From the NCBI GenBank assembly GCA_032128875.1, contig JAVLKG010000016.1, forward strand, positions 16,329 to 80,328: DNA of 64,000 bases. Direction: 5' to 3'. This DNA comes from Candidatus Melainabacteria bacterium 17Bon1m (GTDB taxonomy: Bacteria; Cyanobacteriota; Vampirovibrionia; Obscuribacterales; Obscuribacteraceae). Positions 45,903 to 60,522 of this stretch are shown piece after piece (positions within the stretch are counted from its first letter, which is position 1; each line of letters opens with the position of its first letter). A program made the position numbers and the translations under genes. The notes under the pieces are model-generated. The model was not told where the DNA came from. It ran no database searches and saw nothing but the letters and a program-made list of their open reading frames with translations.

Positions 45903-46030
45903 TGTAGGGACTACGAAAGCTTCGTTGTGCGAGCTTTTCTTGGTTGAGAACCATTCAAATCTGGTATGGTTCATTCGTAAGACGAACGCACCGAGCGCTC
46001 AACATAATCAATCGCCGTTGGGGAAAAGCA

Positions 46031-47242
46031 ATGCCTACAACTGACACGGATCTCGTGCTTCATTTGCCGGATGACATCAACTACGAATGCACTGGCTGCG
46101 GCAAGTGCTGCGGTGGGTGGTCCGTGCCAATGACGCAAGACGATTACGAGCGCATTTCAGCTGTCGATTGGAGTGAGTACGATAGTCGCTATCAAATGCA
46201 GGATTTGTTTCGTGAACTCAAGCCCTACGAATCAAGCGGTACTCCGTATGGCTACGCGATCAAAGAAGGTGGCGACGGACATTGCCCTTTCCTCAAAGAC
46301 AATCTTTGTTTCATTCACTCCAAGCACGGTTCAACATTCAAGCCTTCGATTTGCCAGTTGTTTCCTTACTGCTTCAACGAGACACCGAGCGGCATTTATG
46401 CGACCGTTAGTTTCGTAAGCATGGGTGTCGTCAACAATTCCGGCAAGCCATTGACCGAACAACGTGACTATCTGGAGAGCAAACTCAAAGAATTCAAAAC
46501 GCTTTTCCCCGATCACCATCCTAACTGGTCCAATCTGAAACTGGCTGTGGATAAGCCTCTTACCTGGGATGAGTATCTCGAAATCGAAAAGGAAATGCTT
46601 GCGATTTGGTCTGAGCGTGACAAGTCGCTCGATCTTCGCTTCCTCGCAATCTCGGACATGCTGCTCGAAAAATTCAAAGGAGTGCCCGTGGCACCGCCTT
46701 CCAGCGTGGGCCCTATGAAGAATGTAGATAAGCAATTACTAGTTGCTCTATATAAGATCTACTTCCCGCACAAAAAGCTAGGAAGAGGTGAAGGTGATTT
46801 CAATGCAGGTAGGTTCACCTATCAGATGATGTTCGAGGGTATCTTCCCCGGGCTGCGCCTGCGTTCGCCAACGAGGTCGTACAGTTTCGAAGAGCTCGAG
46901 AAAATCGATTTCCCCGAAGACAAGGACGTAGAGGACCTCATCTACCGCTACTTTCGCTCGCGCATCTTCGGCAAACTCTATTTCGGCGCCGGTTTTGGCC
47001 AATTGAGTCTGATCACCGGCTTTCACCATCTGCTTCTTACATATGTACTTCTAAAAGAGAATTCAAAGATAGTAGCCCTGTCGCGCGGAGCCAGTGTGCC
47101 TAGCTACTTAGACGTAGTTGTTGCCGTGCGCACTTTGGAAAAACGCCTGGGAGAAACATCCTTAGGCGGCTATGCAGCGGCGATTTTGGAACTGCTGCTC
47201 TTTAGTCCTGGACGAATGCGGCGGATTCTCACACATACCTAG
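46031..47242 (+). CDS. YkgJ/FliB-like cysteine-cluster protein
   Basis: CTGCGKCC, CPFLKDNLCFIH, KPSICQLFP; long helical C-terminus as in flagellin lysine methylase-like proteins. Confidence 0.8.
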   Translation: MPTTDTDLVLHLPDDINYECTGCGKCCGGWSVPMTQDDYERISAVDWSEYDSRYQMQDLFRELKPYESSGTPYGYAIKEGGDGHCPFLKDNLCFIHSKHGSTFKPSICQLFPYCFNETPSGIYATVSFVSMGVVNNSGKPLTEQRDYLESKLKEFKTLFPDHHPNWSNLKLAVDKPLTWDEYLEIEKEMLAIWSERDKSLDLRFLAISDMLLEKFKGVPVAPPSSVGPMKNVDKQLLVALYKIYFPHKKLGRGEGDFNAGRFTYQMMFEGIFPGLRLRSPTRSYSFEELEKIDFPEDKDVEDLIYRYFRSRIFGKLYFGAGFGQLSLITGFHHLLLTYVLLKENSKIVALSRGASVPSYLDVVVAVRTLEKRLGETSLGGYAAAILELLLFSPGRMRRILTHT

Positions 47243-47249
47243 AGCGGAG

Positions 47250-47340
47250 CGTGGGGGCGCGTTGCACGCGCCCGTTTGTGTCTTTGGTCGCATGCAATGC
47301 GACCCCACGATTGCCCGTTTGTGTCTTTGGACCCCACGAA
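47250..47340. repeat. REP cluster
   Basis: GTGGGGGCGCGTTGCACGCGCCC, GGTCGCATGCAATGCGACCCCAC and duplicated GCCCGTTTGTGTCTTTGG. Confidence 0.75.
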
Positions 47341-47481
47341 CGTCTCCGGAGTCTTAAACCCACGACCCATACAGAGGTTCCCGGGTTGTCAAATTTTGTG
47401 AAAGGTCCGCTATCGTTTTACTAGTCAGCATTATGGGGCTCGGCTCTGGGTTGATGTGTATTCCACACAACAATTTCCCCG

Positions 47482-47573
47482 TTGACTTGCTTTGGTCTTT
47501 CTTGTAATCTACCCGCACTGATTCCAAGTGGTCGCGCTTTCTGCGACCAGTTTTTAAATTCACTTACTAAATT
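47482..47573 (+). promoter_or_regulatory. Pilin copy 1 promoter + 5'-UTR motif
   Basis: TTGACT-17-TAATCT (47482-47510); hairpin TGGTCGC-gctttct-GCGACCA; CTTACTAAATT at 47563. Confidence 0.75.
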
Positions 47574-47601
47574 TTGAATATAACTGGCAGGAGGTTCTCT
47601 A

Positions 47602-48114
47602 ATGATCCGTAAACTTACTATGTCTGCTCTCGTCGTCGTCGCCCTCGCAATGAACGTTCCAGCATTTGCGCAAGCCCAAGGCGATCAATTTCAATCCTCT
47701 GGAGATCAAGGTCAGATGGGCGATCAAGGGCTAGGTGGTAACACCGGTTCTCAAACCCGTCAAGAAATGGACAGCCAAGCACCGACATTGCAAGGTGCCA
47801 CCAACGGTACAATCGGACCACAAGGCTCTGATGCTACCTACATTACCGGCGTCAACACTGCAGGTACTGTACGTGTAAACAACTTGGCTAACTTGGAAGC
47901 CTTGCTCAACATCATCGCAAACGGTATGGAAATCCTCGGCATTGCATGGGGCGGACCTACAATGATCATGGGCTTCATGCACATGGCAGCCGGCACACAA
48001 GACGCAATGAAGAAAGTACTCTTCGGAGCCGCTGGTGTGACAGGCGGATTGGCAACACCCGGTTGCATCAACTGGCTCGTTGCTTCCGCAAGAGACGCCA
48101 ACTTGTTCAGCTAA
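47602..48114 (+). CDS. VirB2/TrbC-like pilin, copy 1
   Basis: Signal peptide ending AFA|Q, polar G/Q/T segment, two hydrophobic helices split by GTQDAMKK; GGAGG RBS. Confidence 0.7.
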   Translation: MIRKLTMSALVVVALAMNVPAFAQAQGDQFQSSGDQGQMGDQGLGGNTGSQTRQEMDSQAPTLQGATNGTIGPQGSDATYITGVNTAGTVRVNNLANLEALLNIIANGMEILGIAWGGPTMIMGFMHMAAGTQDAMKKVLFGAAGVTGGLATPGCINWLVASARDANLFS

Positions 48115-48150
48115 GACAAAGAATAACTGCCACGCAATCAGGCAATCAGT

Positions 48151-48178
48151 GGAAGGAGCCGCAAGGCTCCTTCCTTTT
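48151..48178 (+). terminator. Terminator of pilin copy 1
   Basis: GGAAGGAGCC-GCAA-GGCTCCTTCC-TTTT. Confidence 0.88.
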
Positions 48179-48226
48179 GCTATGTGAATGAGAACATGCC
48201 TTCGTTCCTTGAGGCATAATTGAGAA

Positions 48227-48670
48227 ATGAACTTTCAGAAGGCAGCTTTCTATTCATCCGTCGCTTTCACCGCAATGTCCAAAGGGTTGGGACTTGTGTT
48301 TTTTTCTGCAATTTCGTTTTTTGTGGCTCTGTGGGTAGTTTCGCTGATATTCTTTTCGAGCCCCGAGCGCCTTACCATTTTTGAGACTGTCTATTCACCT
48401 GATCGTAAGCTGAAAGCCGTTGTGTTTGGATATCAGTTTCGTCCTGATTTGAAGAATGTCTCCGTGCTGAGCGCTGCGGCAAGTCCTGAAATCAACAGAG
48501 ATGGAAATGTCTTCTCTGCGGCATGCAAACGCGCCAATGCTAAATGGAGAGACAATCAGAACCTTGTGATTCTTACCGACGGGGTGGTTGGTACAGCCAT
48601 CAAGTCGAAGAATTTCATTGCGTTCGATCGCGGAGTTGAAATTGATATTCGAGAACTAAAGGGAAAGTGA
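48227..48670 (+). CDS. Membrane-anchored beta-rich protein, paralog A
   Basis: N-terminal TM; SPDRKLKAVVF, NVSVL, GNVF, FIAFDR. Confidence 0.75.
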   Translation: MNFQKAAFYSSVAFTAMSKGLGLVFFSAISFFVALWVVSLIFFSSPERLTIFETVYSPDRKLKAVVFGYQFRPDLKNVSVLSAAASPEINRDGNVFSAACKRANAKWRDNQNLVILTDGVVGTAIKSKNFIAFDRGVEIDIRELKGK

Positions 48671-48671
48671 G

Positions 48672-49112
48672 ATGCATTCAACTTTGCCTGTAAGACCATC
48701 ACCAATCAAATTATTCATTGGATTCTTCATCGGACTTTCAGTTTTTTGGTCCTGGACATGGTTTTGGTCAGGTATTTTCAGCCTTAAGCCCGGGGAGATT
48801 CACCAAAGCATACAAAGGACTGTTATTTCCCCAGATCACAAGTTGAAGGCAGTAGTCTTTACCAACAAGCTCTCGCCAGAAGACGTCTCAATCAATGTGT
48901 CCATCCTCAAGGCGGACGCGAAAATGCGAGAGCAGAAATACGGAAATGTATTTTGCGATTGGGGTGCGCAATGGGCTGATGTGAGCTGGACTAGCAACAA
49001 CTCTATTTGCATTGCTCACACAAAAGGAACGAGCATAAGTTCTCGTAATCACTTCCGAGCATTCGATCGCGATATAGCTATTTCCGAGTTTGTGCCAAAA
49101 CCCTCTAAATAG
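48672..49112 (+). CDS. Membrane-anchored beta-rich protein, paralog B
   Basis: N-terminal TM; SPDHKLKAVVF, NVSIL, GNVF, FRAFDR. Confidence 0.75.
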   Translation: MHSTLPVRPSPIKLFIGFFIGLSVFWSWTWFWSGIFSLKPGEIHQSIQRTVISPDHKLKAVVFTNKLSPEDVSINVSILKADAKMREQKYGNVFCDWGAQWADVSWTSNNSICIAHTKGTSISSRNHFRAFDRDIAISEFVPKPSK

Positions 49113-49164
49113 TTTTCCGGAAAGCTGCCCCGCTTGTGTCACAGTTGAGATCTACTGTAATGAA

Positions 49165-49200
49165 GCTCACTTACGAGCAGCTGTAACCCTCTTACTAAAT
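49165..49200 (+). promoter_or_regulatory. Pilin copy 2 5'-UTR motif
   Basis: GCTC-acttac-GAGC then CTTACTAAAT at 49191; no clear -35/-10. Confidence 0.65.
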
Positions 49201-49230
49201 AGTTCTACAAATACTGAGTGAGGTAGAAAT

Positions 49231-49761
49231 ATGACTCGCCAACTTTTGCATCGCGCTTTTTCTTTTGCTGCAACTTCCGCAGTTTTGCTTGCACTTACCA
49301 CCGGCTCCCCCGTATTCGCCCAAGCGCAAGGTGACCAATTCGCATCTTCTGGTGACGCCGGCATGATGAGTTCTGATGCGCAAGGAAACACCGGTACGCA
49401 AACACGCCATGAGCAAGACTCCGGCTCCGTAATGCTGCAAGGCGCAACAAACGGAACAATCGGACCGCAAGGCTCGGACGCCACTTACATTACTGGAGTC
49501 AACACCGCAGGTACCGTGCGTGTGAACAACTTGGCCAACTTGGAAGCCTTGCTCAACATCGTCGCCAACGGTATGGAAATTCTCGGTATCGCGTGGGGCG
49601 GACCGACAATGATCTTCGGCTTCATGCACATGGCTGCCGGATCGCAGGATGCGATGAAGAAGGTGATGTTCGGCTGTGCGGGTGTGACCGGTGGATTAGC
49701 CACACCAGGTTGTATCAACTGGCTCGTCGCTTCTGCTCGCGATGCGAATCTGTTTAGCTAA
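49231..49761 (+). CDS. VirB2/TrbC-like pilin, copy 2
   Basis: Same core with a divergent N-terminal mature segment and an extra Cys (FGCAG). Confidence 0.7.
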   Translation: MTRQLLHRAFSFAATSAVLLALTTGSPVFAQAQGDQFASSGDAGMMSSDAQGNTGTQTRHEQDSGSVMLQGATNGTIGPQGSDATYITGVNTAGTVRVNNLANLEALLNIVANGMEILGIAWGGPTMIFGFMHMAAGSQDAMKKVMFGCAGVTGGLATPGCINWLVASARDANLFS

Positions 49762-49800
49762 TTGCCGGCTCACAACGAAACGAAAAAATGTAAAACAGCA

Positions 49801-49828
49801 GAAAGGAGCCGAAAGGCTCCTTTCAATT
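49801..49828 (+). terminator. Terminator of pilin copy 2
   Basis: GAAAGGAGCC-GAAA-GGCTCCTTTC. Confidence 0.8.
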
Positions 49829-49908
49829 ACTCGACTTTAGAGTGTTAACTAGTACCGGCTGATTCTGTTTCGTGCTGTAAGCGGAATGCAATCCTTTTCC
49901 ATACGCGC

Positions 49909-52275
49909 TCAGTCCCGGGCATGGAGCGCTGCTTCATGCTCTATCGTCGAAATAGCGGATGTCCAGGCGGACTCTGTGCCAGGCGCAACATCATTTCGCT
50001 GCAGTGCTGTTCTGATTTTGTTTGCGAAATTCGGATCGCCGAATTCATCGAAAGCCCAATCTTTTGCAAAGCTTGTGATTTCGTTTGGGTCCGTAAGATT
50101 TGCAAGCGCCGACTCGTCTGGCTTCAACAAGCCGAAAGTGGATGATCTGAACTTCCTCAAATCTCCGTTGTACGTGGTTGGTGAGGGATACACCGCGCGT
50201 TCGGATGGTGGCATCTCATTCAAAACCGTGCGCCAAACGTTGGCTGTTTCTTCGGGAATATTGTTGAAACTAATTACGCGTTCAATTTGATCTTGGAAGA
50301 TTGGACCTCTCCAATCATTTGCTATCAGGAAAGCCTCAATCTCATCAGGTTTCGTTAGGCTGACTGCTTTGCTGTAATCTCCAAAGGCAGCTTCGCTCAA
50401 TCTTGAATATTCATCATAGAGTTCTGCTGTTGGCTTACCAGCCTTCAGCTGCTCAAGAAGTTTGGGCAATATGAATTGGTCGATCTTGGTCAAGGCAGGA
50501 TTCGATATAGCTGTTTCGAGGCGAGTTGGTATTTGCGTTTCGAATTCGTCTGCAAGTGCGGCCCAAACTTCTTTTGTTTTCGGGTTAATGACGCCTTTGG
50601 TGATGTAATCTCTAATTTTTTCCGCCATGCGCAGTGGATTGTTTATTTGCTGGTTTGCGTACCGCGCGTATGCCGCGATCTCCGAAGGATCAGACAATGT
50701 TGTGTAAATGAATTCACGTGGGGTCACAAAGGCATTGTCTGCCAAAGATTGAATGCGCGGAAGTGCCTCAAGTCCGGCTTGCCTGATTGCCTCTGGGTCT
50801 GTCGAGAGAAGTGGTGGAAGTCCGTTCTCCGGCATCGAGTTGAGAGCTGTTCGCCAGGCATCCGCGGTTTCTGCCGGAATTTGATTGTTTGCAATTGCTG
50901 TCTCGATTTCATTGCGGAAGTTTGGAGCGGTTTCGCTATTACGAGCGACGAACGCTTTGATTTCGTCAGCTTGCGTGAATCCAAATGCCTTCTCTCTGGT
51001 AGCGTTAGAGGCACTGGCCATACGATCGAAATATGTTGTGATTTCTTCGGCGGTTTTGCCTGCTTTCAGATCGTCGAGCATTTTGGGGAGCACTGTCCGC
51101 TCAAAGTTTGGAAGCGTTCCATCTTGCAGTGAAGACTGCATGGTTTTCAAAGCCTTAGTTTCAAACTCTTTGGCGAGTTCAAGCCAAAGCCCCTTCTGAT
51201 TTGGATTTAAAACATTTCTTTCAGCCATAGACTGAATTTCGAAAACCATCCCCAGCGGATGGCTGCTCTTGTTGTTCATGTCGCGGGCGATTGCGACGAT
51301 GTCTTCCGGATTGTCGAGTGCCGAGTAGAGATACTCATATGCATTCATGTTCGCTTTGTCAGCCATCACCGCAGCGCGTGCCGTTGCTTCCTTTGCCGCT
51401 GCCTCGACGGCGTCAGTGGACATATCGGCTGCGAGGGCCGCCGCACCGTCGGCTGATACTGTTGTTGCACCTTCAGATGCGGTTGCCGCAGTTTTTGCTG
51501 CTACTGTTGCACCTTCCCCTGCGACTGTCGCGCTTTCCGCAGCAGCGGTTTTTGCTGCGATGTTTGCGGATGCTGTGTCGAATGCTTGTTTTACCGCACC
51601 GCCCATCTTGCCGTAGACAAAACCTCCACCAACTACGTCTGCAAAAAGGTTTACACCTCCGGCTCCAACTCCTCTTAGACCCTCATGCGCTTTTGCTACT
51701 TCTTCTGCAGAGTATTTAGATGCATTCCAGACTACTTCGCCATCCTTGATCCATTGAGGCATGTGTTCGGCAAGCGACCAACCTGTAAGACCGATTGCTC
51801 CGGCTGCAAGTCCAACCATTCCTGCGACTGGAAGCCATGCTGGAGCTGTTGCAATAATAGGCGCTGCTGCAATGCCTGCAATGCAAATACCAGCAGTTAT
51901 TGCCGCTCCTACTAGTAAGTGGGTTCCCCAGTCGAGCGGATTGGTGAGCTGCTGAATGCCACCACCTATGATGTCACCAGCAACTCCGAAAAATCCACCG
52001 TCTTGCTGTGGTGTTACTTGCGCTGCTTCTTTTGGCGCAGTGAGGTTGACGCTGCCTGGCTCGGAGCCAAGCGCCATCGCTAATTCTGCAACTTTCTTAT
52101 CTCTGGTTGAATCAACGAATTCTATATTATGTAGATCGGCAGTGTTCTCAGTGCTTGTGTATTTGCCTGCTTCCGATAGCGTTTGCAGGTAATCTTCATG
52201 AAGCTTGTGAGTAGTGCTTGTATCGTCTGTCTGTGCATAATTTGGAGCGAAGCTCTCAACGGGTTGGTAAGCCAT
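49909..52275 (-). CDS. Large hypothetical protein: hydrophobic hairpin, Ala/Thr linker, tandemly duplicated helical domain
   Basis: AAGGAG before ATG 52275; Gly/Ala-rich hydrophobic helices; ~200-aa internal duplication. Confidence 0.8.
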   Translation of the reverse strand: MAYQPVESFAPNYAQTDDTSTTHKLHEDYLQTLSEAGKYTSTENTADLHNIEFVDSTRDKKVAELAMALGSEPGSVNLTAPKEAAQVTPQQDGGFFGVAGDIIGGGIQQLTNPLDWGTHLLVGAAITAGICIAGIAAAPIIATAPAWLPVAGMVGLAAGAIGLTGWSLAEHMPQWIKDGEVVWNASKYSAEEVAKAHEGLRGVGAGGVNLFADVVGGGFVYGKMGGAVKQAFDTASANIAAKTAAAESATVAGEGATVAAKTAATASEGATTVSADGAAALAADMSTDAVEAAAKEATARAAVMADKANMNAYEYLYSALDNPEDIVAIARDMNNKSSHPLGMVFEIQSMAERNVLNPNQKGLWLELAKEFETKALKTMQSSLQDGTLPNFERTVLPKMLDDLKAGKTAEEITTYFDRMASASNATREKAFGFTQADEIKAFVARNSETAPNFRNEIETAIANNQIPAETADAWRTALNSMPENGLPPLLSTDPEAIRQAGLEALPRIQSLADNAFVTPREFIYTTLSDPSEIAAYARYANQQINNPLRMAEKIRDYITKGVINPKTKEVWAALADEFETQIPTRLETAISNPALTKIDQFILPKLLEQLKAGKPTAELYDEYSRLSEAAFGDYSKAVSLTKPDEIEAFLIANDWRGPIFQDQIERVISFNNIPEETANVWRTVLNEMPPSERAVYPSPTTYNGDLRKFRSSTFGLLKPDESALANLTDPNEITSFAKDWAFDEFGDPNFANKIRTALQRNDVAPGTESAWTSAISTIEHEAALHARD

Positions 52276-52745
52276 ACTTCTCCTTAGTAGCCGAAAGCCC
52301 GCCTTCAAGAGGCGTAGTTTGGCTTAGAATCGCAAAGGGGTGGGGCGGGCGCCGATAGCCATTAAAAGGGCTAACGAAGTGAATACTAACTGAGCTGCAT
52401 GACAATCGTTTGACGACGAAAGGTTGTCGGCAGAATTTGAATTTCTCGTCATTTCGACCAAAAATGAACTACGTGATCTACCTAATGAAGGTGATCAAAA
52501 ATGCGCAAAGATCGCTGTGATTTAGAGATTTTTGCGGGGTGGAAACATTGAATTTCGACGGGCTCGCAAGGAAGGCGAAAGGTACCTTTCGCGTGTTTGT
52601 AAAAGGATGCCGCGTGATATGCGGTTGAGAATCCGCATGAATACTGGATGTGATTAGAGCGTGAACAAAACCTTTCAACATTCAACCTTTCGCGAGAGTG
52701 TCAAAACCCGCATGAATAAAGATTTTGTAGGGCTGTCACAATCGC

Positions 52746-52821
52746 TTGACATTGGTTCTGCTTAGGAATACATTGCTAGCACGCTCACTTGGAGCGCCTT
52801 CACATTCAACCTTTACTAATT
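52746..52821 (+). promoter_or_regulatory. Pilin copy 3 promoter + 5'-UTR motif
   Basis: TTGACA-17-TACATT; CGCTC-acttg-GAGCG; TTTACTAATT at 52812. Confidence 0.75.
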
Positions 52822-52846
52822 AGGAATATTACTTGAGGAGGTAACT

Positions 52847-53380
52847 ATGCTTCGCTCCGCATCTCGTCGTCTGGCTACTTTGTGCCTTACTACCGCTTTT
52901 GTTGCAGGTCTCGCCCTCAACCTACCAGCTTTTGCGCAAGCGCAAGGTGATCAATTCCAATCCGCTGGAGATCAAGGTCAGCTGGGCGATCAAGGGCTAG
53001 GTGGTAACACTGGTGCCCAAACGCGTCACGAAATGGACAGCATGTCGCCGACCTTGCAAGGCGCGACAAACGGTACCATCGGACCGCAAGGCTCTGATGC
53101 GACATACATCACCGGCGTTAACACCGCAGGTACAGTGCGCGTAAACAACTTAGCTAACTTAGAAGCACTCCTCAACATCATTGCCAACGGGATGGAAATC
53201 CTCGGCATAGCATGGGGCGGACCTACCATGATCATGGGCTTCATGCACATGGCTGCCGGCACACAACAAGCGATGAAGAAAGTACTCTTCGGCGCTGCCG
53301 GTGTGACAGGCGGTCTCGCAACGCCTGGTTGCATCAACTGGCTCGTTGCATCCGCTCGCGATGCCAACTTGTTCAGCTAG
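52847..53380 (+). CDS. VirB2/TrbC-like pilin, copy 3
   Basis: Same architecture; GAGGAGG RBS. Confidence 0.7.
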   Translation: MLRSASRRLATLCLTTAFVAGLALNLPAFAQAQGDQFQSAGDQGQLGDQGLGGNTGAQTRHEMDSMSPTLQGATNGTIGPQGSDATYITGVNTAGTVRVNNLANLEALLNIIANGMEILGIAWGGPTMIMGFMHMAAGTQQAMKKVLFGAAGVTGGLATPGCINWLVASARDANLFS

Positions 53381-53481
53381 AACAAACTGCAGGGGAGGCA
53401 TATATGCCTCCTGTCAGGGAGCCGCATTCAGCTTCCTTACTTAGAAAGTACAACTCCACGCCAACCATAGTGAATCAGTTA

Positions 53482-53513
53482 GAAGGAGCCGGCCCCCGGC
53501 TCCTTTTATTTTT
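53482..53513 (+). terminator. Terminator of pilin copy 3
   Basis: AAGGAGCCGG-CCC-CCGGCTCCTT-TTATTTTT. Confidence 0.85.
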
Positions 53514-53626
53514 GTCTGCATTTTTTTGTATTGCCGCATTGTATGCGGCGTTTCGTTTTGCCTAGCTAATTCTGATTGTCGTTGTTTCGCTTTTTTGTGG
53601 AAACATCGACCTAGGGTTTTCGCTAA

Positions 53627-53700
53627 TTGACTTTGGGTGGCTCTGAGAATAATCTGCACACAAGCTCACTTTTAGAGCTTTTCGGAAACACTTACTAATT
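53627..53700 (+). promoter_or_regulatory. Pilin copy 4 promoter + 5'-UTR motif
   Basis: TTGACT-17-TAATCT; AAGCTC-actttta-GAGCTT; CTTACTAATT at 53691. Confidence 0.78.
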
Positions 53701-53730
53701 CTTTGAATTCACTCGGAAGGAGGTATTCTC

Positions 53731-54249
53731 ATGTTCCGCAAGCTAACCATGTCCGCCCTCGGACTATCAGTTCTTGCCGCATTCGCGCTCAACGCGCCAG
53801 CTTTCGCACAGGCTTACGGTGATCAATTCTCTTCATCTGGTAGCGAAGGTCAGTATTCATCTCAATATGAAGGAAACACGGGCACTCAAAGTTTGCACTA
53901 CAACGACAGTAACGCACCGACATTGCAAGGCGCTGCGCTTGGCACCATCGGACCACAAGGTGGCGATGCGACTTACATAACCGGCATCAACACTGCTGGT
54001 ACGGTACGTGTAAATAACTTAGCCAACTTAGAGGCACTGCTCAACATCATCGCCAACGGTATGGAGATCCTCGGCATTGCCTGGGGCGGACCAACCATGA
54101 TCATGGGCTTCATGCACATGGCGGCCGGAACACAAGACGCAATGAAGAAAGTTCTCTTCGGTTGCGCCGGTGTCACCGGTGGTCTCGCGACACCCGGTTG
54201 CATCAACTGGCTAGTTGCGTCCGCGCGTGATGCCAACCTGTTCAGCTAG
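53731..54249 (+). CDS. VirB2/TrbC-like pilin, copy 4
   Basis: Most divergent N-terminal segment (Tyr/Ser-rich), extra Cys; AAGGAGGT RBS. Confidence 0.7.
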   Translation: MFRKLTMSALGLSVLAAFALNAPAFAQAYGDQFSSSGSEGQYSSQYEGNTGTQSLHYNDSNAPTLQGAALGTIGPQGGDATYITGINTAGTVRVNNLANLEALLNIIANGMEILGIAWGGPTMIMGFMHMAAGTQDAMKKVLFGCAGVTGGLATPGCINWLVASARDANLFS

Positions 54250-54346
54250 AACGTAATGTAGGGACGACATTTATGCCGCCCACCATGTCGCCTCATGCGA
54301 CCAATAAGTTAGAAAACACATATCAGCCAGCCATAGTGAATCAGTC

Positions 54347-54379
54347 GGAAGGAGCAGAGATGCTCCTTCTGTTTTTATT
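54347..54379 (+). terminator. Terminator of pilin copy 4
   Basis: GGAAGGAGCA-GAGA-TGCTCCTTCT-GTTTTT. Confidence 0.88.
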
Positions 54380-54421
54380 CGTGAGTTAAATCGCATTTGA
54401 GTCGATTGTTTTTGCAATGAC

Positions 54422-55090
54422 CTACATGGTCTTCGTGGTCTTCTTCGCAACGAGATGCCGCGGAAGATTTACCAGTGCATACTTCGACTTCGGCCTCACT
54501 TTGCCTGCGACGAGCTTTGCAGCTTGCTTGTTTGCTTTTTGAGCTGCTCGAATATAATCGTTCGCAATCTTGAACTTTCCGTCATTCGCCGCTTCTACCG
54601 CCTTCTCAAGCCAGTTTCCAGAGCGCTTCATATTCTCCAGAGCCAGCGGCAATTCCGGGTGAACCTGATAGCCTGTCGCGCCCAACAGGAACCAACAGCT
54701 ATCGATACGCGCTGAGTTTTTGATGTTCCAAACTCGCGCTTCATCTTTCCACAGAGCTGTTCTTGTTTCGGACTTTCGTTGTTCTGCATCAGCATCATTT
54801 TGGATAGCCATCACCAATTTCTGCGTGCTATTGATGAAGGTTTGACACGACGCGATCGCGTCTGATACGCCCTCTTTTGTTGGACAACCTTCCCACTCAA
54901 TGCGACTGCATTCTGCTACCTTCTCGACCTCTGTTTTCGGCTTAATTGTGATGGTCCTGATGGGAGTGATTTCCTGCTTCTTGGGTTGCAGCAAATGTGC
55001 ATTAATTGACGCTTCCACGCAACCGATTAGGACGCAGAGAAAACAGTATTGATAGATAAAGCTCTCGGGTTTCCGGAAGTTGATTTTCAT
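54422..55090 (-). CDS. Hypothetical membrane-anchored helical protein
   Basis: ORF with one N-terminal hydrophobic segment; start ATG 55090 chosen. Confidence 0.55.
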   Translation of the reverse strand: MKINFRKPESFIYQYCFLCVLIGCVEASINAHLLQPKKQEITPIRTITIKPKTEVEKVAECSRIEWEGCPTKEGVSDAIASCQTFINSTQKLVMAIQNDADAEQRKSETRTALWKDEARVWNIKNSARIDSCWFLLGATGYQVHPELPLALENMKRSGNWLEKAVEAANDGKFKIANDYIRAAQKANKQAAKLVAGKVRPKSKYALVNLPRHLVAKKTTKTM

Positions 55091-55281
55091 GGATGCACCA
55101 AACCCTCGCCCTCGGAGTTGCCGAAAGGCACTCCTGAAGGCAGCAGACGCACGCACCGCGCCCGGCGATCTGTTGTTGATCGCTCTGCGCGTTGCTATAC
55201 CTTCAATCTAGCATTGCAATGTTTTGTGCTTGTAAAGAGAAGCGCAAGCAGCTATGAAATCAGTGCAAAAAAGTCGGACAA

Positions 55282-55455
55282 CTATTTCTTTGGAAACGCA
55301 AAAACCTTTGGTTTTGTGTCCTTTTGGGACGAGTGTTTATTTACGCACCTGATGCAAATTGCGATTTGGCTTCCTTCCTGTTTCTCGATTACAGGAAATG
55401 GTTTACTTCCAGGGATTGCTAAAACAGGTGAGCAGAAGTAGCATTCGGTTTTCAT
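55282..55455 (-). CDS. Small C4 zinc-finger protein (ClpX zinc-binding-domain-like)
   Basis: MKTECYFC...IAICIRCV, two CxxC pairs. Confidence 0.55.
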   Translation of the reverse strand: MKTECYFCSPVLAIPGSKPFPVIEKQEGSQIAICIRCVNKHSSQKDTKPKVFAFPKK

Positions 55456-55578
55456 AACAATATTGTTGGAACTGGCAAAGCGCATTTTGAACGCTTCAAT
55501 GTGCGTTTCGCAGATAACGGAGGAAACCTTCGGCTGTTTCGCAAAAGACGCACAGATTACTGTTGCTTTTCATGCGCG

Positions 55579-55890
55579 TCATCCTCCGGAAACTTCAGAA
55601 TCAATGACTTCGTAATCGAGACGTATCGCAGCTTGCTTTGCATATTCAAGCTCAACAATTTGATGAACAGTGCGCATATGACCCATCATAAAGAGTTCTT
55701 TGATTATCCGAACATCCGTAAGTTCGAGTTTTCCCGCAAGTTCTTTCACTGTGAGATTTTTTGTGAGCACGATTTTGCGCGGTTCTCCGTCTGGCGCCGC
55801 TCTACCAACGCGAGTTTTTCCACTGGGGCCATTTCCTCCGGAATCAGCCTGCGATGATTGCTTAAAGTGTTTTCGATTTGGCTTGTGCAC
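55579..55890 (-). CDS. Stand-alone translation initiation factor IF-2 N-terminal-like domain protein
   Basis: LTVKELAGKLELTDVRIIKELFMMGHMRTVHQIVELEYAKQAAIRLDYEV matches the IF2_N pattern; AAGGA upstream. Confidence 0.7.
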   Translation of the reverse strand: MHKPNRKHFKQSSQADSGGNGPSGKTRVGRAAPDGEPRKIVLTKNLTVKELAGKLELTDVRIIKELFMMGHMRTVHQIVELEYAKQAAIRLDYEVIDSEVSGG

Positions 55891-56039
55891 CTTAAACCAG
55901 CCTTTTCCTTTTGACGCCTCTAATATCAGTGTCTCATAAGAGGCGAAACATTGGACACTGGAAGGAAACTTGGACTGGAATGGGCATAAAAGCTCTCGTC
56001 GCAGGCACGCCTACAGGCTGATAACGTAAAGCGACGCGG

Positions 56040-57140
56040 ATGGTGTCAATGCCAGAGAAAAATCTGCAAGTATTGCTTTCCTCAATTAAGCCTAGACTGC
56101 GCGACGAGCAGTTTGTATTTTGCAGTGTCCTTGAGCGTGAGTTCAAAAAGCTGACCGTCAGCCCAATTTGTATCTTTCGAGAGGCTGAGGGTGTTTCCCT
56201 CATCGTCGAGAAATCCGATGCTGATTCGGCTTCTTTGAGGTACGACGGCACTTGGTCTTTGATCACTTGTGAGGTAAACTCTGACCTGAATGCCGTCGGC
56301 TTTATTGCGGCAATGTCTAAGATGATTTCTGATGCCGGGATTTCAGTAAACACTGTTTCAGCATTTCACCACGATCATTTATTTGTTCCATCTGATCGTG
56401 TCGAGGAGGTTATGCTCTTGCTTCAGGAACCACCAAAGAAACCCGTTCCAAAACGCGATCCGATCGAAAATATTCGCGAATTGATTCCCCTGATTTTTAG
56501 CGAACATCGTGCGCACAAAGCGTTGGGCTCACTGCTTTCGCAGGGACATGCATTGATCACGTCCAAGTTTGGCGAACCACTTCCGCCGGACATGCGAATC
56601 TTTTACGAACGCTGTTCTGACGTAAAAATCTTCGACCGCTATTCGATCTTGTCTTTGCAGAAAGCAATTGATGTTGATCGGTCGCAACTCCCTAAGAGTT
56701 GGTTTCCGTTTTGTGAATTGCCTTCTGGTAGCTTGATTGCAATTGATCTCAGCGAGCCTAACGGTGTTTATCCCATTATTGATCTCGATTGCGGTGACTT
56801 TGATTACATTGTGATCGCGCTGAGTTTTACTGAGTTTATCGACAAGATACTCGCAAATGGTCAAGATTCAAACTATTGGGTTGATCACAACGAGCAATAT
56901 GGCACAGCGAAAGTTCATTTGAAAAACTCTCAAGTTCGCAAAAAATATGAAGAATATTGGGATTCTCTCGGTCCGGAAAACGGCTCGCAGCGCTGCATGG
57001 CTGATGACTGTGAAAACAAGAACGTGAAACTAAGTGTCTTCTGCCGCCAGCATCAATTTGAACAAGTGCACAAGGTGACCTGCCCTTTCACCAGCGATGC
57101 ACCCGCAGATACGCTTGCTGAGTACGAGTTGAAGGAATAG
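56040..57140 (+). CDS. ACT-domain (DUF2241-like) / SMI1-KNR4 fusion protein
   Basis: FREAEGVSLI...SDLNAVGFIAAMS...SAFHHDHLFVP, then PLPPDMRIFYERC...IALSFTEFIDK. Confidence 0.75.
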   Translation: MVSMPEKNLQVLLSSIKPRLRDEQFVFCSVLEREFKKLTVSPICIFREAEGVSLIVEKSDADSASLRYDGTWSLITCEVNSDLNAVGFIAAMSKMISDAGISVNTVSAFHHDHLFVPSDRVEEVMLLLQEPPKKPVPKRDPIENIRELIPLIFSEHRAHKALGSLLSQGHALITSKFGEPLPPDMRIFYERCSDVKIFDRYSILSLQKAIDVDRSQLPKSWFPFCELPSGSLIAIDLSEPNGVYPIIDLDCGDFDYIVIALSFTEFIDKILANGQDSNYWVDHNEQYGTAKVHLKNSQVRKKYEEYWDSLGPENGSQRCMADDCENKNVKLSVFCRQHQFEQVHKVTCPFTSDAPADTLAEYELKE

Positions 57141-57172
57141 GAAATATTTCTTGTCTGTGTGCAGTCTGTCGC

Positions 57173-57352
57173 CTACTTTTCACGAGCTCTTTCTGCCATT
57201 TCATCAGCCTTGAACTTGAAATACAGCTGCTCTGCGTCAACCTGCTCTTGTCGCGTCGTTATCCAAACTGGAACTGTTAGAAAAAAGCCAATAACTGCAA
57301 GCAGAGCCAAAATCGTGAGTAGCAGTGCGATTCGAATCAGTTTTTCGCGCAT
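57173..57352 (-). CDS. Small single-TM protein (59 aa)
   Basis: Not in the ORF track; MREKLIRIALLLTILALLAVIGFFLTVPVW...AREK*. Confidence 0.5.
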   Translation of the reverse strand: MREKLIRIALLLTILALLAVIGFFLTVPVWITTRQEQVDAEQLYFKFKADEMAERAREK

Positions 57353-57402
57353 ATAGAGATTCCATAACCAACGTCGTTGCTTCTCTTCCAGTGCTATAGC
57401 TA

Positions 57403-57945
57403 TTATGCACTTGCGAACAATTTGCGTCTAAAAGCAAACACAGTCAGTACTATTAAGAGTGGAAAAGCAATCGCTTGAGGAGTTGCATCGTGTGAACTTG
57501 TATGTGCTTTGGGTTTGCTTGCAGGAACTGGTTCCATGCGCAGATTCCTTCCTTGCACTGACATTTCAGAGCTTGAAATTGTATAGAGCATGAAAGCGCC
57601 TGGTTGAATTAACGGATTCAATGGGGGACCGTACAGAGAGCGCGCGCACATTGTATTGTTGCCTTGCGTGAGTTTATCCGAACCCCCCTTTTCTGAGGGG
57701 GTCTCTATGCATTTGTCATCAACTTTAGGTGACTTAATAACTATTGCTGCGAGTCCCTCAGCAAATGAAATTTCATGCGTGCAACCTCGCGACGGATCAG
57801 GTTGCAGTACGAGAACGCTACAGAAAAAGCCCAGTGTGCACGATCGTACAGACGATGAATATTTGGGACAAGTAATGCTTTTTCGAGGCATATTTCTGAT
57901 GTGTTTTTCTGGAAGGTTTGGCTGTAATGCCGAATTTTTAAGCAC
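57403..57945 (-). CDS. Hypothetical protein with C-terminal TM anchor
   Basis: ORF overlapping the upstream gene; ends IAFPLLIVLTVFAFRRK; start uncertain. Confidence 0.5.
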   Translation of the reverse strand: MLKNSALQPNLPEKHIRNMPRKSITCPKYSSSVRSCTLGFFCSVLVLQPDPSRGCTHEISFAEGLAAIVIKSPKVDDKCIETPSEKGGSDKLTQGNNTMCARSLYGPPLNPLIQPGAFMLYTISSSEMSVQGRNLRMEPVPASKPKAHTSSHDATPQAIAFPLLIVLTVFAFRRKLFASA

Positions 57946-58285
57946 ACTTTTGATAGTGTCTTAGTCTTACAAAGAAGAATGGAATCAACCAGATCGTCGC
58001 AAAGAGGATAGCGAAAGTAGACGCATCAATAAAACCATGGCAGGGACGATGTCCAAGATGGACGCGTTTGCGTCCAGTTCCTCTGATTCCCTCCATTCTG
58101 AGGTCACCATCTCTCAGAACGATTAAGACGGTTTCGATTTTTTGCGGCGTTATTGACCGATTGTACTGTTCAACGTATTCCGGGTGCGAGAACCCGGACG
58201 CCAAGCCAAGTCCGAATGAGACAATGGTTGCCACTAAAGTTCCTTGGGACCAGTTATTCATCGGTTGTTTCACAAAATCTTTCAA
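57938..58285 (-). CDS. Small two-TM membrane protein
   Basis: Two hydrophobic segments; 4-bp overlap with the upstream gene. Confidence 0.55.
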   Translation of the reverse strand: MKDFVKQPMNNWSQGTLVATIVSFGLGLASGFSHPEYVEQYNRSITPQKIETVLIVLRDGDLRMEGIRGTGRKRVHLGHRPCHGFIDASTFAILFATIWLIPFFFVRLRHYQKCA

Positions 58286-58629
58286 AGCTGTTCGTGCGTT
58301 TGTGCGATGCCTGGCTGCGTGTGCGGCGCGAGCATCGCATCAGCAACTTGAATCGCCGCGAAGCCGACTGCACACACACCTAATAAGGTAAAAGCTGCGC
58401 GCTTGATGTTGCCTTTTGAGATAACTGTTCTTACTAAGAAGAAAATTGCGGCGAGCACTGTTGTGTAGACCATCGCCTGCAAGCCCATGACTGGGTTGTT
58501 TGGATTATGACCAACCGACTTTAGTACGTCGTACACGGCACTCGACACACCGCAGAAAATCGCGCAAGCAACCCATATCCGAATCCAATCCGGACTTTCC
58601 TTGGTGGTGGCATTGCGTGTGTGCGTCAT
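58282..58629 (-). CDS. Small three-TM membrane protein
   Basis: Three hydrophobic segments. Confidence 0.6.
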   Translation of the reverse strand: MTHTRNATTKESPDWIRIWVACAIFCGVSSAVYDVLKSVGHNPNNPVMGLQAMVYTTVLAAIFFLVRTVISKGNIKRAAFTLLGVCAVGFAAIQVADAMLAPHTQPGIAQTHEQL

Positions 58630-58757
58630 GTGAAGGTTCTCGCATTATCGATCGGAGTGTCGCATATAAAGGAAAGACTGTAATCAGTAGAAATCCCACG
58701 CAAAGCCAAACAGGTTGAGCGATTTGCGAAAATGTAGTCTGGACAACAATTCAGCTC

Positions 58758-58835
58758 TTGACTTCGTGCTGAGTTGCACTTAATCTGTAGACCGGTTCGC
58801 TTTTAGAGCCGATTTTGACCAAACCTTACTAAATT
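58758..58835 (+). promoter_or_regulatory. Pilin copy 5 promoter + 5'-UTR motif
   Basis: TTGACT-17-TAATCT; CGGTTC-gctttta-GAGCCG; CTTACTAAATT at 58825. Confidence 0.78.
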
Positions 58836-58867
58836 TCAAATCAAGCCTTCGTTGGAGGAGTTTGTAT

Positions 58868-59386
58868 ATGCGTAAAGCCAAAGCATTGGGTCTCGTCGCT
58901 GCTGTAGCCCTCGGCCTCGCCCTCAACGTACCTGCATTTGCACAAGCACAAGGCGATCAATTTCAATCCTCTGGAGATCAAGGTCAGATGGGCGATCAAG
59001 GGCTAGGTGGTAACACCGGTTCTCAAACCCGTCAAGAAATGGACAGCCAAGCACCGACATTGCAAGGTGCCACCAACGGTACAATCGGACCACAAGGCTC
59101 TGATGCTACCTACATTACCGGCGTCAACACTGCAGGTACTGTACGTGTAAACAACTTGGCTAACTTGGAAGCCTTGCTCAACATCATCGCAAACGGTATG
59201 GAAATCCTCGGCATTGCATGGGGCGGACCTACAATGATCATGGGCTTCATGCACATGGCAGCCGGCACACAAGACGCAATGAAGAAAGTACTCTTCGGAG
59301 CCGCTGGTGTGACAGGCGGATTGGCAACACCCGGTTGCATCAACTGGCTCGTTGCTTCCGCAAGAGACGCCAACCTGTTCAGCTAA
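58868..59386 (+). CDS. VirB2/TrbC-like pilin, copy 5
   Basis: Mature protein identical to copy 1, different signal peptide; GGAGGAG before ATG 58868. Confidence 0.7.
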   Translation: MRKAKALGLVAAVALGLALNVPAFAQAQGDQFQSSGDQGQMGDQGLGGNTGSQTRQEMDSQAPTLQGATNGTIGPQGSDATYITGVNTAGTVRVNNLANLEALLNIIANGMEILGIAWGGPTMIMGFMHMAAGTQDAMKKVLFGAAGVTGGLATPGCINWLVASARDANLFS

Positions 59387-59414
59387 CAAAGTTTTCCCCC
59401 GCCAACGCCAGCCA

Positions 59415-59439
59415 GAGACCTCCCGTAAGGGGGGTTTTT
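59415..59439 (+). terminator. Terminator of pilin copy 5
   Basis: GACCTCCC-GTAA-GGGGGGTT-TTT. Confidence 0.7.
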
Positions 59440-59523
59440 GGTATTGTGGGCAAAGTTTGTGAAGCCAGTTGTGCTGCCAATATGCGAAGATGTGTCCATC
59501 GGAATTTGTAGAGGGCGCAAACT

Positions 59524-60234
59524 ATTTCGCTGACAGACGATCAAAGGAAGAAGTACCGCAAGCAGCTCGCGATGCCGGGAATGACCGAGGAGTGCCAGGA
59601 GCGTTTGATGAACGCGCGCATTCTGATTTTGGGCACTACGGAAATTGCTTTTGTTTGTGCGGAACAGTTGATGCGTGTTGGCGCTGGACACTTAGAACTC
59701 GCAGGGGCGAGTGTCTATGATTTGCATTTGTTGGCAGAACGGCTTGAGGCTGCTGGCGCGAAGCACTGCACGCAAGTTGGCGTTGCGGAGCGGACTTTCG
59801 ATGCGCATGATTCGGAAGATTTGATTCGGAGTTTTGATGTTGTTGTCGATGCGATGATCGACTGGCAGCTAAAATTGGTGGCAAGTGACGCATGCATGCG
59901 GTTGGCAAAACCGTTGGTGCATGTAGGTGGCGAAGGTTTTCGGTATCAGTTGTATACGATGCGCCCCGGTAGATCGGCGTGTCTAAGGTGTGTGTTTCCG
60001 AGAATCGGCATCGATGATTTTCCTAAGGCGCAAGATGAGGATGCATCGTTTCCTCCCGTCGCGAGTGTGCTGGGTTCTTTGCAGGCTATTGAGGCTGCGA
60101 AACTAGCTTCACGCTTTGGTGCGAGCCAGGGCAACGAACTATTCAAGTTTGATTTTTTGAGCGGCGAGATGGAGATGATCACAGGACTGGATGCAGTTAG
60201 TGATTGTCCTGATTGCGGTAATAGGCGGAGATAG
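59524..60234 (+). CDS. Degenerate ThiF/MoeB-family protein
   Basis: LTDDQRKKYRKQLAMPGMTEECQERL, FDVVVDAM, ACLRCVFP, LGSLQAIEAAK, CPDC; homology extends upstream of ATG 59572 to ATT 59524. Confidence 0.8.
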   Translation: MSLTDDQRKKYRKQLAMPGMTEECQERLMNARILILGTTEIAFVCAEQLMRVGAGHLELAGASVYDLHLLAERLEAAGAKHCTQVGVAERTFDAHDSEDLIRSFDVVVDAMIDWQLKLVASDACMRLAKPLVHVGGEGFRYQLYTMRPGRSACLRCVFPRIGIDDFPKAQDEDASFPPVASVLGSLQAIEAAKLASRFGASQGNELFKFDFLSGEMEMITGLDAVSDCPDCGNRRR

Positions 60235-60288
60235 ACGACCTATTTTCTGCCGGCGGGATGCCGGCGGGCGCAGTGAAAAAACGGACGA

Positions 60289-60522
60289 CGGGTGGCGTCG
60301 CCCCTACAGAAAGAGGGCGCCTGCAACGCGCCCCCACGCCGAGCTGTGTCGTCCGACCTAAAAGGGGCGCGTGCAACGCGCCCCCACGCCGAGCTGTGTC
60401 GCCCGACCTAAAAGGGGCGCGTGCAACGCGTCCCCACGCAGGGCTGTGTCGGCCGACCTAAAAAGGGCGCGCGCAACGCGACACCACGCTGTTAGGCTGG
60501 GCGATGCTTGGCATCTCGCCTA
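60289..60522. repeat. Tandem 50-bp REP-containing units (3 full + 1 partial), flanked by REPs
   Basis: AAAGGGGCGCGTGCAACGCGCCCCCACGCCGAGCTGTGTCGCCCGACCTA at 60311, 60361, 60411, partial at 60461. Confidence 0.9.

Follow-up and report, generated by a model that had tools for sequence, protein, structure and literature searches.

A hairpin and a UUACUAA box in the leaders of a secreted-protein gene family of Obscuribacterales form a candidate RNA element

Why do five neighbouring genes, whose leaders can hardly be aligned with one another, carry a small hairpin and the same seven-letter box ahead of their start codons? The genes lie on a 64,000-nucleotide (nt) stretch of Candidatus Melainabacteria bacterium 17Bon1m (contig JAVLKG010000016.1, positions 16,329 to 80,328; hereafter the window), all on the plus strand, and encode paralogous proteins of 170-177 aa, each with a Sec-type signal peptide followed by a G/Q-rich linker and an almost invariant C-terminal half of about 100 aa. 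A reading made from the letters alone (the sequence-only reading) had taken the hairpin and the box TTACTAA for an undescribed RNA motif that coordinates the array. We compared these leaders with those of relatives and found that the box is conserved across the order, on one strand and inside the predicted transcript, at a fixed distance from a covarying stem, and that a second copy of it in the first codons is kept by a strong synonymous-codon bias. Judging from these sequence features, the element probably acts on the mRNA rather than on the DNA.

The box is exact in all five leaders of the window (Table 1), one nt on from the C or T from which its positions had first been counted (47563, 49191, 52812, 53691 and 58825). 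Counted from that base, it lies 35-43 nt before the ATG, in agreement with the sequence-only reading if copy 5 starts at ATG 58868; this start is more likely than TTG 58862 of the open reading frame (ORF) list (58862-58870), because GGAGG stands 9 nt before it and because of the start positions in orthologs. A hairpin is present ahead of every box, ending 11-16 nt from it, where about 10-15 nt had been claimed. The description of the leaders as otherwise unalignable was nearly right, as in forced global alignments the five are 61-72% identical, compared with a mean of 59% and a maximum of 65% for shuffles. In the minimum-free-energy (MFE) folds, the box is unpaired in four of the five leaders. 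Other exact copies of TTACTAA in the 64 kb (5741, 9296 and 58431 on the plus strand, 6474 and 9417 on the minus strand) were rejected as further elements, since none of them stands in a comparable leader.

The relatives were collected by a contig scan with two peptide patterns, which gave at least 47 loci; this is a partial sample, and more relatives exist. Nearly all of the 47 loci are labelled Candidatus Obscuribacterales, Obscuribacteraceae or Melainabacteria, with a protein identity to copy 1 of 63-92%. A tblastn search yielded 76 gene copies, from which 68 non-identical leaders were extracted, the start codons being set by the Shine-Dalgarno (SD) sequence and the frame. The leaders were grouped into 43 clusters at 70% identity, which is conservative, since this threshold is near the chance level for the scoring used.

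In an unbiased k-mer count over positions -110 to -19, the top 6-mer was TTACTA (31/43 clusters) and the top 7-mer TTACTAA (23/43). Allowing one mismatch at most within -95 to -25, we found the box in 35 of the 43 clusters, the mean in 200 shuffles being 8.7 and the maximum 16. The median position of these 35 sites is -41, and the distance to the ATG ranges from 31 to 77 nt across clusters. Positions T1, T2, A3 and A6 are invariant (35/35), C4 is kept in 34 sites and T5 in 31, and position 7 is A in 28 sites (otherwise C in three, G in one and T in three). An A and then C or T are preferred ahead of the box, a-t follows it, and the flanks are G-poor. The reverse complement TTAGTAA never occurs at the place of the box in the 68 leaders, and the box is still present in genomes with a protein identity of only 63-75%.

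Two simpler explanations of the heptamer were rejected. It is not the stop of an upstream ORF, as position 7 is not A in 7/35 sites and copy 1, inspected by eye, has no start codon in that frame; nor is it the -10 element of a second promoter, as 28/35 sites have A where sigma-70 promoters need T.

The box is also specific to the family. In the window and all loci taken together (308,211 nt), family leaders account for 38 occurrences of [CT]TTACTAA and the N-terminal codons of family genes for 10; elsewhere it occurs 12 times on the plus and four times on the minus strand, with about 10.8 expected per strand. A covariance model of the stem of copy 1 and its orthologs (R1), a check that had been proposed at the outset, gave 16 matches with E < 0.01 in the same 308 kb, all of them family leaders. 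A search for the promoter-plus-box pattern returned 53 units, all on the family strand.

The hairpins of the window were evaluated against 1000 dinucleotide shuffles per segment; the p values of the single copies are given in Table 1, and combined they reach 4e-4 (Fisher). Across the family, 29 clusters could be tested in the segment between the -10 element and the box (of the other 14, 11 have no clear promoter or box and in three the segment is too short). Eight of the 29 have p < 0.05 against dinucleotide shuffles, and the enrichment over all 29 is 2.1e-6 by stem score and 2.5e-7 by MFE (Fisher; mean z -1.3).

The stems fall into two classes that can be aligned in register: class A comprises copy 1 and its orthologs, which in 10-15 loci come after anmK and a gene for a CxxCxxCC protein, and class B comprises copies 2-5 and close relatives. 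Counts were made on the trimmed alignments A5 and A8; the MAFFT alignments A3 and A7 were left unused, their 3' arms being out of register. The class A stem GGTCGC/GCGACC appears elsewhere as GGTTGC/GCAACC, GGCCGC/GCGGCT and GACTGC/GCGGTC. In the 13 class A leaders chosen 89% of the cells are paired and five of the seven pairs have changed on both sides; pairing drops to 23-50% when the partner is slid by 1-3 columns, and RNAalifold returns the same 6-bp helix with compensatory changes at 4/6 pairs. In class B (15 leaders, 13 distinct) the core GCTC/GAGC is invariant and hence uninformative, and the loops range from 5 to 7 in length; the outer pairs have changed on both sides in 5/13 rows each. 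The covariation score was reached by 0/500 shuffles in either class, a significance that these controls overstate, since stem-bearing rows had been selected and the leaders share ancestry. On the sense strand G-U outnumbers A-C by 15 to 4, as expected if the sense RNA folds. Thus the covariation that had been claimed from the five stems of the window is supported by compensatory changes in both classes.

The sequence-only reading had treated hairpin and box as one element. They are coupled, with 11-17 nt between the hairpin end and the box in 15 of the 21 hairpin-bearing clusters, but the box also occurs alone, 8-9 nt after the -10 element in four leaders (L011, L014, L015, L031) and 14-18 nt after it in two (L008_3001, L009_322); thus hairpin and box are separable. 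The list of parts was also incomplete: it had missed the box in the early codons, described below, and a conserved 5' segment, GATTYCAAGRGG, which directly precedes the class A stem in L001, L007, L018, L021, L023, L029, L030, L034, L037, L038, L045 and L046.

In 36/43 clusters a sigma-70-type promoter TTGACT-17-TAnnnT, with a score of 9 of 12 or better, stands upstream, and thus the box is inside the predicted transcript. The distance from the -10 element to the box varies from 8 to more than 50 nt, and that to the hairpin from 4 to 74 nt (21 clusters); in 12 of the 21 clusters 4-10 nt separate the -10 from the stem, which puts the stem next to the predicted start, and in six 14-20 nt do so. 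In the window, the claim that the element lies downstream of the -10 holds for four copies; copy 2 (ATG 49231) has no convincing promoter by which to place its stem relative to the 5' end.

A second peak of TTACTA falls at +0 to +29. In 24/43 clusters it occurs within the first 60 nt of the coding sequence (CDS), and 24 of the 25 occurrences are in one frame, xTT ACT Axx, encoding [L/I/F]-T-[K/M..] within codons 2-9. At this site the codon usage departs strongly from that of the rest of the gene: Thr is written ACT in 26/31 cases at the site, compared with 16/43 at other N-terminal positions (p = 1.3e-7) and 121/580 in the gene body, and Leu is written CTT in 14/15 cases (32/113, p = 2.4e-7, and 32/431, respectively). 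The same tendency is seen for Ile ATT (7/7 at the site, 18/48 at other N-terminal positions, 90/338 in the body) and Phe TTT (6/8, 18/38 and 43/180). The spacing between the two boxes is 42-99 nt, without helical phasing.

We may now consider at which level the element acts. The box is confined to one strand of the predicted transcript and keeps its distance from a covarying stem that tolerates G-U pairs, which argues for RNA, as do the unpaired and G-poor context of the box, its repetition at a synonymous cost beside the start codon, and the free spacing both to the promoter and between the two boxes. As to the mechanism, we lean, tentatively and short of calling it probable, to the following account. 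A short stem-loop with a U-rich loop would be 5'-proximal in the transcript, beginning around +1 to +3 in copies 3-5 and most relatives, and would shield that end against 5'-end-dependent decay. The box A-Y-UUACUAA, 11-17 nt on in a G-poor stretch predicted to be unpaired, would be a sequence-specific docking site for a putative trans-acting factor, either the seed of a small RNA, which would then be UUAGUAAG-like, or an RNA-binding protein. In many members the box in the 5' untranslated region (UTR) and the UUACUA of the CDS would bracket the SD sequence and the start codon, and the bound factor would set, in one direction or the other, the translation initiation and hence the decay of all family mRNAs jointly.

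Several observations weigh against this account. The 5' end of the transcript is placed by promoter consensus only; the stem of copy 1 and its orthologs begins 14-20 nt past the -10, leaving a single-stranded 5' tail, which, from what is known in E. coli, is expected to weaken 5'-end protection. Eight of the 43 clusters have no box, at least six of the 68 leaders have the box and no hairpin, and 21 of the 29 tested clusters are individually not significant for the hairpin, to which the overstated significance of the covariation should be added. The whole leaders of the five copies fold no better than shuffles (z from -0.9 to +0.5), and on these grounds a riboswitch-like fold was rejected. The second box is present in only one of the five window copies, and copy 4 writes the same K-L-T-M with CTA ACC, hence the second box is dispensable. 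Finally, no candidate factor and no conserved complementary sequence were seen, and the syntenic neighbours (anmK, the CxxCxxCC protein, ThiF and a VWA7_N-like gene; 8-15 loci) include no RNA-binding candidate.

If the element were a factor-free expression booster, with the stem stabilising the mRNA and the box serving as a ribosome standby or enhancer site that binds S1 or pairs with 16S rRNA, the setting would suit it well: strong consensus promoters and GGAGG sequences ahead of the genes, and a separate terminator behind each of them, are what highly expressed genes are expected to have, the box is single-stranded and G-poor and lies 20-25 nt upstream of the SD sequence, and both boxes are near the edges of the region covered by the 30S subunit (the footprint is about -35 to +19). 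We nevertheless regard it as doubtful, because A/U-richness needs less specificity than four invariant positions and a fifth kept in 34/35 sites, because the distance to the ATG varies more than twofold, and because a 6-nt match to a 1.5-kb rRNA is near chance anyway. A protein binding TTACTAA as DNA, downstream of the start and in the early CDS, and repressing by roadblock or looping, would explain why TTA-C-TAA is a 7-bp near-palindrome and why two copies flank the gene start in many members; an upstream dyad (see below) also speaks for control at the DNA level in the family. Such a site is unlikely, as the sense strand of the 68 leaders carries the C-form only, the flanks are asymmetric, the distance to the promoter varies from about 8 to more than 50 nt, and that between the boxes shows no 10.5-nt phase; the distance that is fixed is instead the one to an RNA-type covarying hairpin.

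We consider it quite improbable that the box is a cleavage site, cut by RNase E/J beside the stem-loop or by a MazF-type toxin with a 7-nt site, for a joint shut-off or maturation of the mRNAs. MazF enzymes with sites of 5-7 nt are known, one of them recognising UUACUCA in a haloarchaeon, and a single-stranded A/U-rich stretch at a fixed distance after a stem-loop, with a second copy near the start codon, would be a fitting substrate; yet four leaders have the box right at their 5' end, where a cut would take hardly anything away, and no linked nuclease gene was found among the window ORFs scanned, the DEDDh exonuclease-WYL gene at 61537-62430 being outside the set compared for synteny. The hairpin itself could be a leader terminator that aborts transcription unless overridden, as GTTTTTAAAT comes after the hairpin of copy 1, which is flagged terminator-like, and TTTT follows the stem in several relatives. 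With at least five T in the 8 nt past the stem in only 2/21 hairpin-bearing clusters and no T-run in copies 2 and 3, with short stems (4-8 bp, dG -4 to -11), and with the conserved box after and not before the supposed terminator, such attenuation is very improbable; the MFE folds of the five leaders showed no antiterminator pairing, which was not the object of a dedicated search. Equally disfavoured, and just as improbable, is a functionless remnant of duplication or gene conversion. Some shared upstream sequence is expected among paralogs with an invariant C-terminal half, but the window leaders are otherwise at the chance level, the box is kept in genomes with strongly diverged proteins, the stems show compensatory changes, and the CDS box is under synonymous constraint.

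Some of the coordination may take place at the level of transcription. Copies 1 and 5 carry a TGTA-N8-(T/A)ACA dyad exactly 9 nt upstream of the -35 element, and TGTA-N8-TACA with one mismatch at most is found at this place in 7/36 clusters, as compared with 0.7 in shuffles (in more of them with two mismatches). The dyad resembles the operator consensus of the CRP/NtcA family. The usual activating position of NtcA and CRP is -41.5, and the dyad lies further upstream than that. By its sequence, it may serve the transcriptional co-regulation of a part of the family. Thus, the proposal of an RNA motif coordinating the array stands as regards an order-wide conserved, strand-specific and transcribed element, and may have to share the coordination, in copies 1 and 5, with a possible DNA signal.

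Table 1. Coordinates of the leader elements, genes and associated motifs; positions refer to the window unless a locus is named.
Feature	Copy	Position	Strand	Details
Dyad TGTA-N8-(T/A)ACA	1	47457-47472		TGTATTCCACACAACA
Promoter	1	47482-47510	+	TTGACT (47482-47487), 17 nt, TAATCT (47505-47510); consensus match
Conserved 5' segment	1	47520-47528	+	GATTCCAAG, ahead of the stem; GATTYCAAGRGG-like before class A stems in distant genomes
Hairpin	1	47529-47549	+	TGGTCGCG-CTTTC-TGCGACCA, then GTTTTTAAAT; 8 bp, dG -11.2, p = 0.011; flagged terminator-like
UTR box TTACTAA	1	47564-47570	+	38 nt ahead of ATG 47602
Gene	1	47602-48114	+	ORF list
Second box TTACTAT	1	47615-47621	+	inside CDS; K-L-T-M = AAA CTT ACT ATG
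Hairpin	2	49165-49178	+	GCTC-ACTTAC-GAGC; 4 bp, weak, p = 0.25
UTR box TTACTAA	2	49192-49198	+	39 nt ahead of ATG 49231
Gene	2	49231-49761	+	ORF list
Promoter	3	52746-52774	+	TTGACA, 17 nt, TACATT
Hairpin	3	52782-52796	+	CGCTC-ACTTG-GAGCG; 5 bp, starts 7 nt past -10, p = 0.043
UTR box TTACTAA	3	52813-52819	+	34 nt ahead of ATG 52847
Gene	3	52847-53380	+	ORF list
Promoter	4	53627-53655	+	TTGACT, 17 nt, TAATCT; consensus match
Hairpin	4	53662-53680	+	AAGCTC-ACTTTTA-GAGCTT; 6 bp, starts 6 nt past -10, p = 0.014
UTR box TTACTAA	4	53692-53698	+	39 nt ahead of ATG 53731
Gene	4	53731-54249	+	ORF list
Dyad TGTA-N8-(T/A)ACA	5	58733-58748		TGTAGTCTGGACAACA
Promoter	5	58758-58786	+	TTGACT, 17 nt, TAATCT; consensus match
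Hairpin	5	58793-58811	+	CGGTTC-GCTTTTA-GAGCCG; 6 bp with one G-U, starts 6 nt past -10, p = 0.072
UTR box TTACTAA	5	58826-58832	+	42 nt ahead of ATG 58868
Gene	5	58868-59386	+	start re-assigned
3' 15-mer with terminator hairpin and TTTTTGG tail	5	59399-59434		CCGCCAACGCCAGCC
3' 15-mer in other loci		L006 1719; L007 3951; L010 3525; L016 1041 and 2316; L018 3332; L020 2786; L021 3557; L030 3886; L033 410; L034 4013; L036 309; L041 264; L042 231		CCGCCAACGCCAGCC

Three of the 53 promoter-plus-box units have no CDS (L007 3830-3995, L030 3722-3925 and L034 3863-4060). Each lies just downstream of a family gene. It has a promoter of the family type, TTGACTTC...TAATCTATAA, and the box, after which come 60-110 nt in which no ORF is conserved, followed by the 3' 15-mer described below and a terminator; the unit of L007 also has a GCTC/GAGC hairpin, and only L030 and L034 share a conserved body. 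These units may be small RNAs, possibly decoys, or deletion remnants. A more far-reaching scheme would make them decoys that titrate the factor of a lineage-wide regulon, in which an RNA-binding protein or small RNA reads the stem, UUACUAA and the UUACUA of the CDS and clamps the ribosome-binding site. We rate this scheme as unlikely; a KH-type reader of UACUAA would presumably fit the letters of the box.

The 3' ends of family genes carry a motif of their own. All five window genes are followed by a terminator-like hairpin, and after copy 5 only, starting 13 nt past the stop codon, the exact 15-mer CCGCCAACGCCAGCC stands just ahead of such a hairpin with its TTTTTGG tail. It is identical in 13 loci with proteins just 63-75% identical (Table 1), and in L016 it additionally follows an unrelated TPR gene. 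The 15-mer has no Rfam match and may be a 3'-UTR or terminator-associated signal.

The genes had been called pilin genes, a name that our searches do not support. None of the five proteins matches a Pfam family at E <= 0.01 (TrbC/VirB2, PF04956/PF18895, included), NCBIfam and the PDB sequence profile search gave no hit, and the best 120 of 1022 homologs are unnamed or 'hypothetical'. The AlphaFold2 model is poor (predicted local distance difference test, pLDDT, 55) and shows a helix for the signal peptide, then a disordered linker and, at residues 86-129 and 134-167, two helices that form a hairpin; a Foldseek search with it against PDB came back empty. In the Atlas, clusters of T4SS_pilin/TrbC, DUF4134 and DUF3852 were reached at 0.83-0.85, under the required 0.9, and are weak leads only. 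The signal peptide and the two-helix topology would fit a pilin of a type IV secretion system (TrbC/VirB2), in so far as a model with pLDDT 55 can be trusted, and no such system, pilus or secretion machinery was found among the 50 window ORFs scanned. With no match in family, fold or linked machinery, the word pilin is a guess. Type IV pilins were rejected, as the N-termini are of the ordinary Sec type, ending in PAFAQA in the alignment, and lack a class III signal peptide of the G/FTLIE type. By profile search, the same C-terminal domain of about 110 aa ends proteins of 470-1190 aa (P0127-P0270), and among 15 of these large proteins scanned VIT is present in 10 and VWA in three. Possibly the small proteins represent a short version of an anchoring or polymerising module that the two groups have in common, and, as far as the modelled evidence goes, the gene product would be secreted and carry a helical hairpin that is membrane-active or polymerises.

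The array has a conserved setting: anmK and the gene of a CxxCxxCC-domain protein lie upstream in 10-15 loci (44709-47242 in the window), and a ThiF-family gene in 12 loci and a VWA7_N-like gene in eight lie downstream (59572-61293). Thus, the array keeps the same chromosomal site throughout the order. Copies 1 and 2 are separated by two adjacent paralogous ORFs for small membrane proteins (48227-48670 and 48672-49112, plus strand), which have no family match. No terminator was found ahead of copy 2, itself without a clear promoter, and this copy may be transcribed by read-through from the two small ORFs. Within the array, a 103-aa ORF on the minus strand (55579-55890) contains an IF2_N domain (Pfam E = 5e-8); it has a relative in only one other locus (L044), and a link to the leader element is unsupported. 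Far from the array, a 357-aa ORF (3080-4153, plus strand) has a weak short Pfam ATLF match (28.2 bits, the cut-off being 27.4; residues 283-318), which is probably only the zinc-metalloprotease motif region.

We know of no work on post-transcriptional control in the uncultured Obscuribacterales or in other non-photosynthetic relatives of cyanobacteria. The stem, the fixed spacer, the box and the second box under synonymous constraint make an order-wide candidate RNA signal, attached to a family that looks to be among the most strongly expressed secreted proteins. It could be used for libraries of RNA families, in a search for the regulator, and for marking family genes in metagenomes; a general principle would change only if the two-box clamp or the decoy scheme proved right.

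The motif had been called undescribed, and this holds. With the 4227 models of Rfam 15, the whole window at the gathering threshold gave only two tRNAs, the region 47000-59500 at E <= 10 gave eight weak matches, none in a leader, and four related loci at E <= 1 gave three weak unrelated matches; among the titles and abstracts searched, no bacterial description of a hairpin with UUACUAA was found. In their architecture, the leaders are like the orphan motifs of Rfam, where a small conserved hairpin and box belong to one gene family in one lineage and were found by comparison, differing in that nothing in Rfam itself matches them.

Three studied leader devices come close. The 5' UTR of E. coli ompA has a 5'-terminal stabiliser stem-loop on the abundant mRNA of an envelope protein, and our leaders resemble it in a short stem-loop with a predicted 5'-proximal position, a long leader, a single-stranded A/U-rich segment, a strong SD sequence and an mRNA for a secreted protein. 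There is no sequence relation, however; the invariant UUACUAA 11-17 nt after the stem is peculiar to the leaders studied here, and the stem of the copy 1 orthologs is, by its predicted position, not terminal. In enterobacteria, the targets of GcvB have C/A-rich, G-poor leader elements that are both enhancers and targets of one small RNA. The likeness is that many mRNAs have in common a short single-stranded motif poor in G, placed at a variable distance upstream of the SD sequence or in the first codons, whereas the motif differs, the regulon here is one paralogous family, and no small RNA with a complementary seed was found. CsrA and FliW control the flagellin (hag) mRNA via two leader sites, again on the mRNA of a secreted structural subunit, with two short motifs around the ribosome-binding site, one of them linked to a hairpin; CsrA, however, reads GGA in hairpin loops and at the SD sequence, while here we find UUACUAA and U-rich loops (CTTTC, ACTTAC, ACTTG, ACTTTTA and GCTTTTA), from all of which GGA is absent.

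The letters of the box recur in eukaryotes, where STAR/KH response elements include the branch-point box UACUAAC and ACUAAY. TTACTAA is reported as the DNA site of yeast Yap (PMC6545440). Both share the core UACUAA or TTACTAA with our box in letters only, being from another domain of life with another machinery, and the STAR/KH resemblance is at most a hint, by analogy, at a KH-type reader. Among the bacterial systems, the element is an undescribed one that would work like the known leader devices and is a member of none of them.

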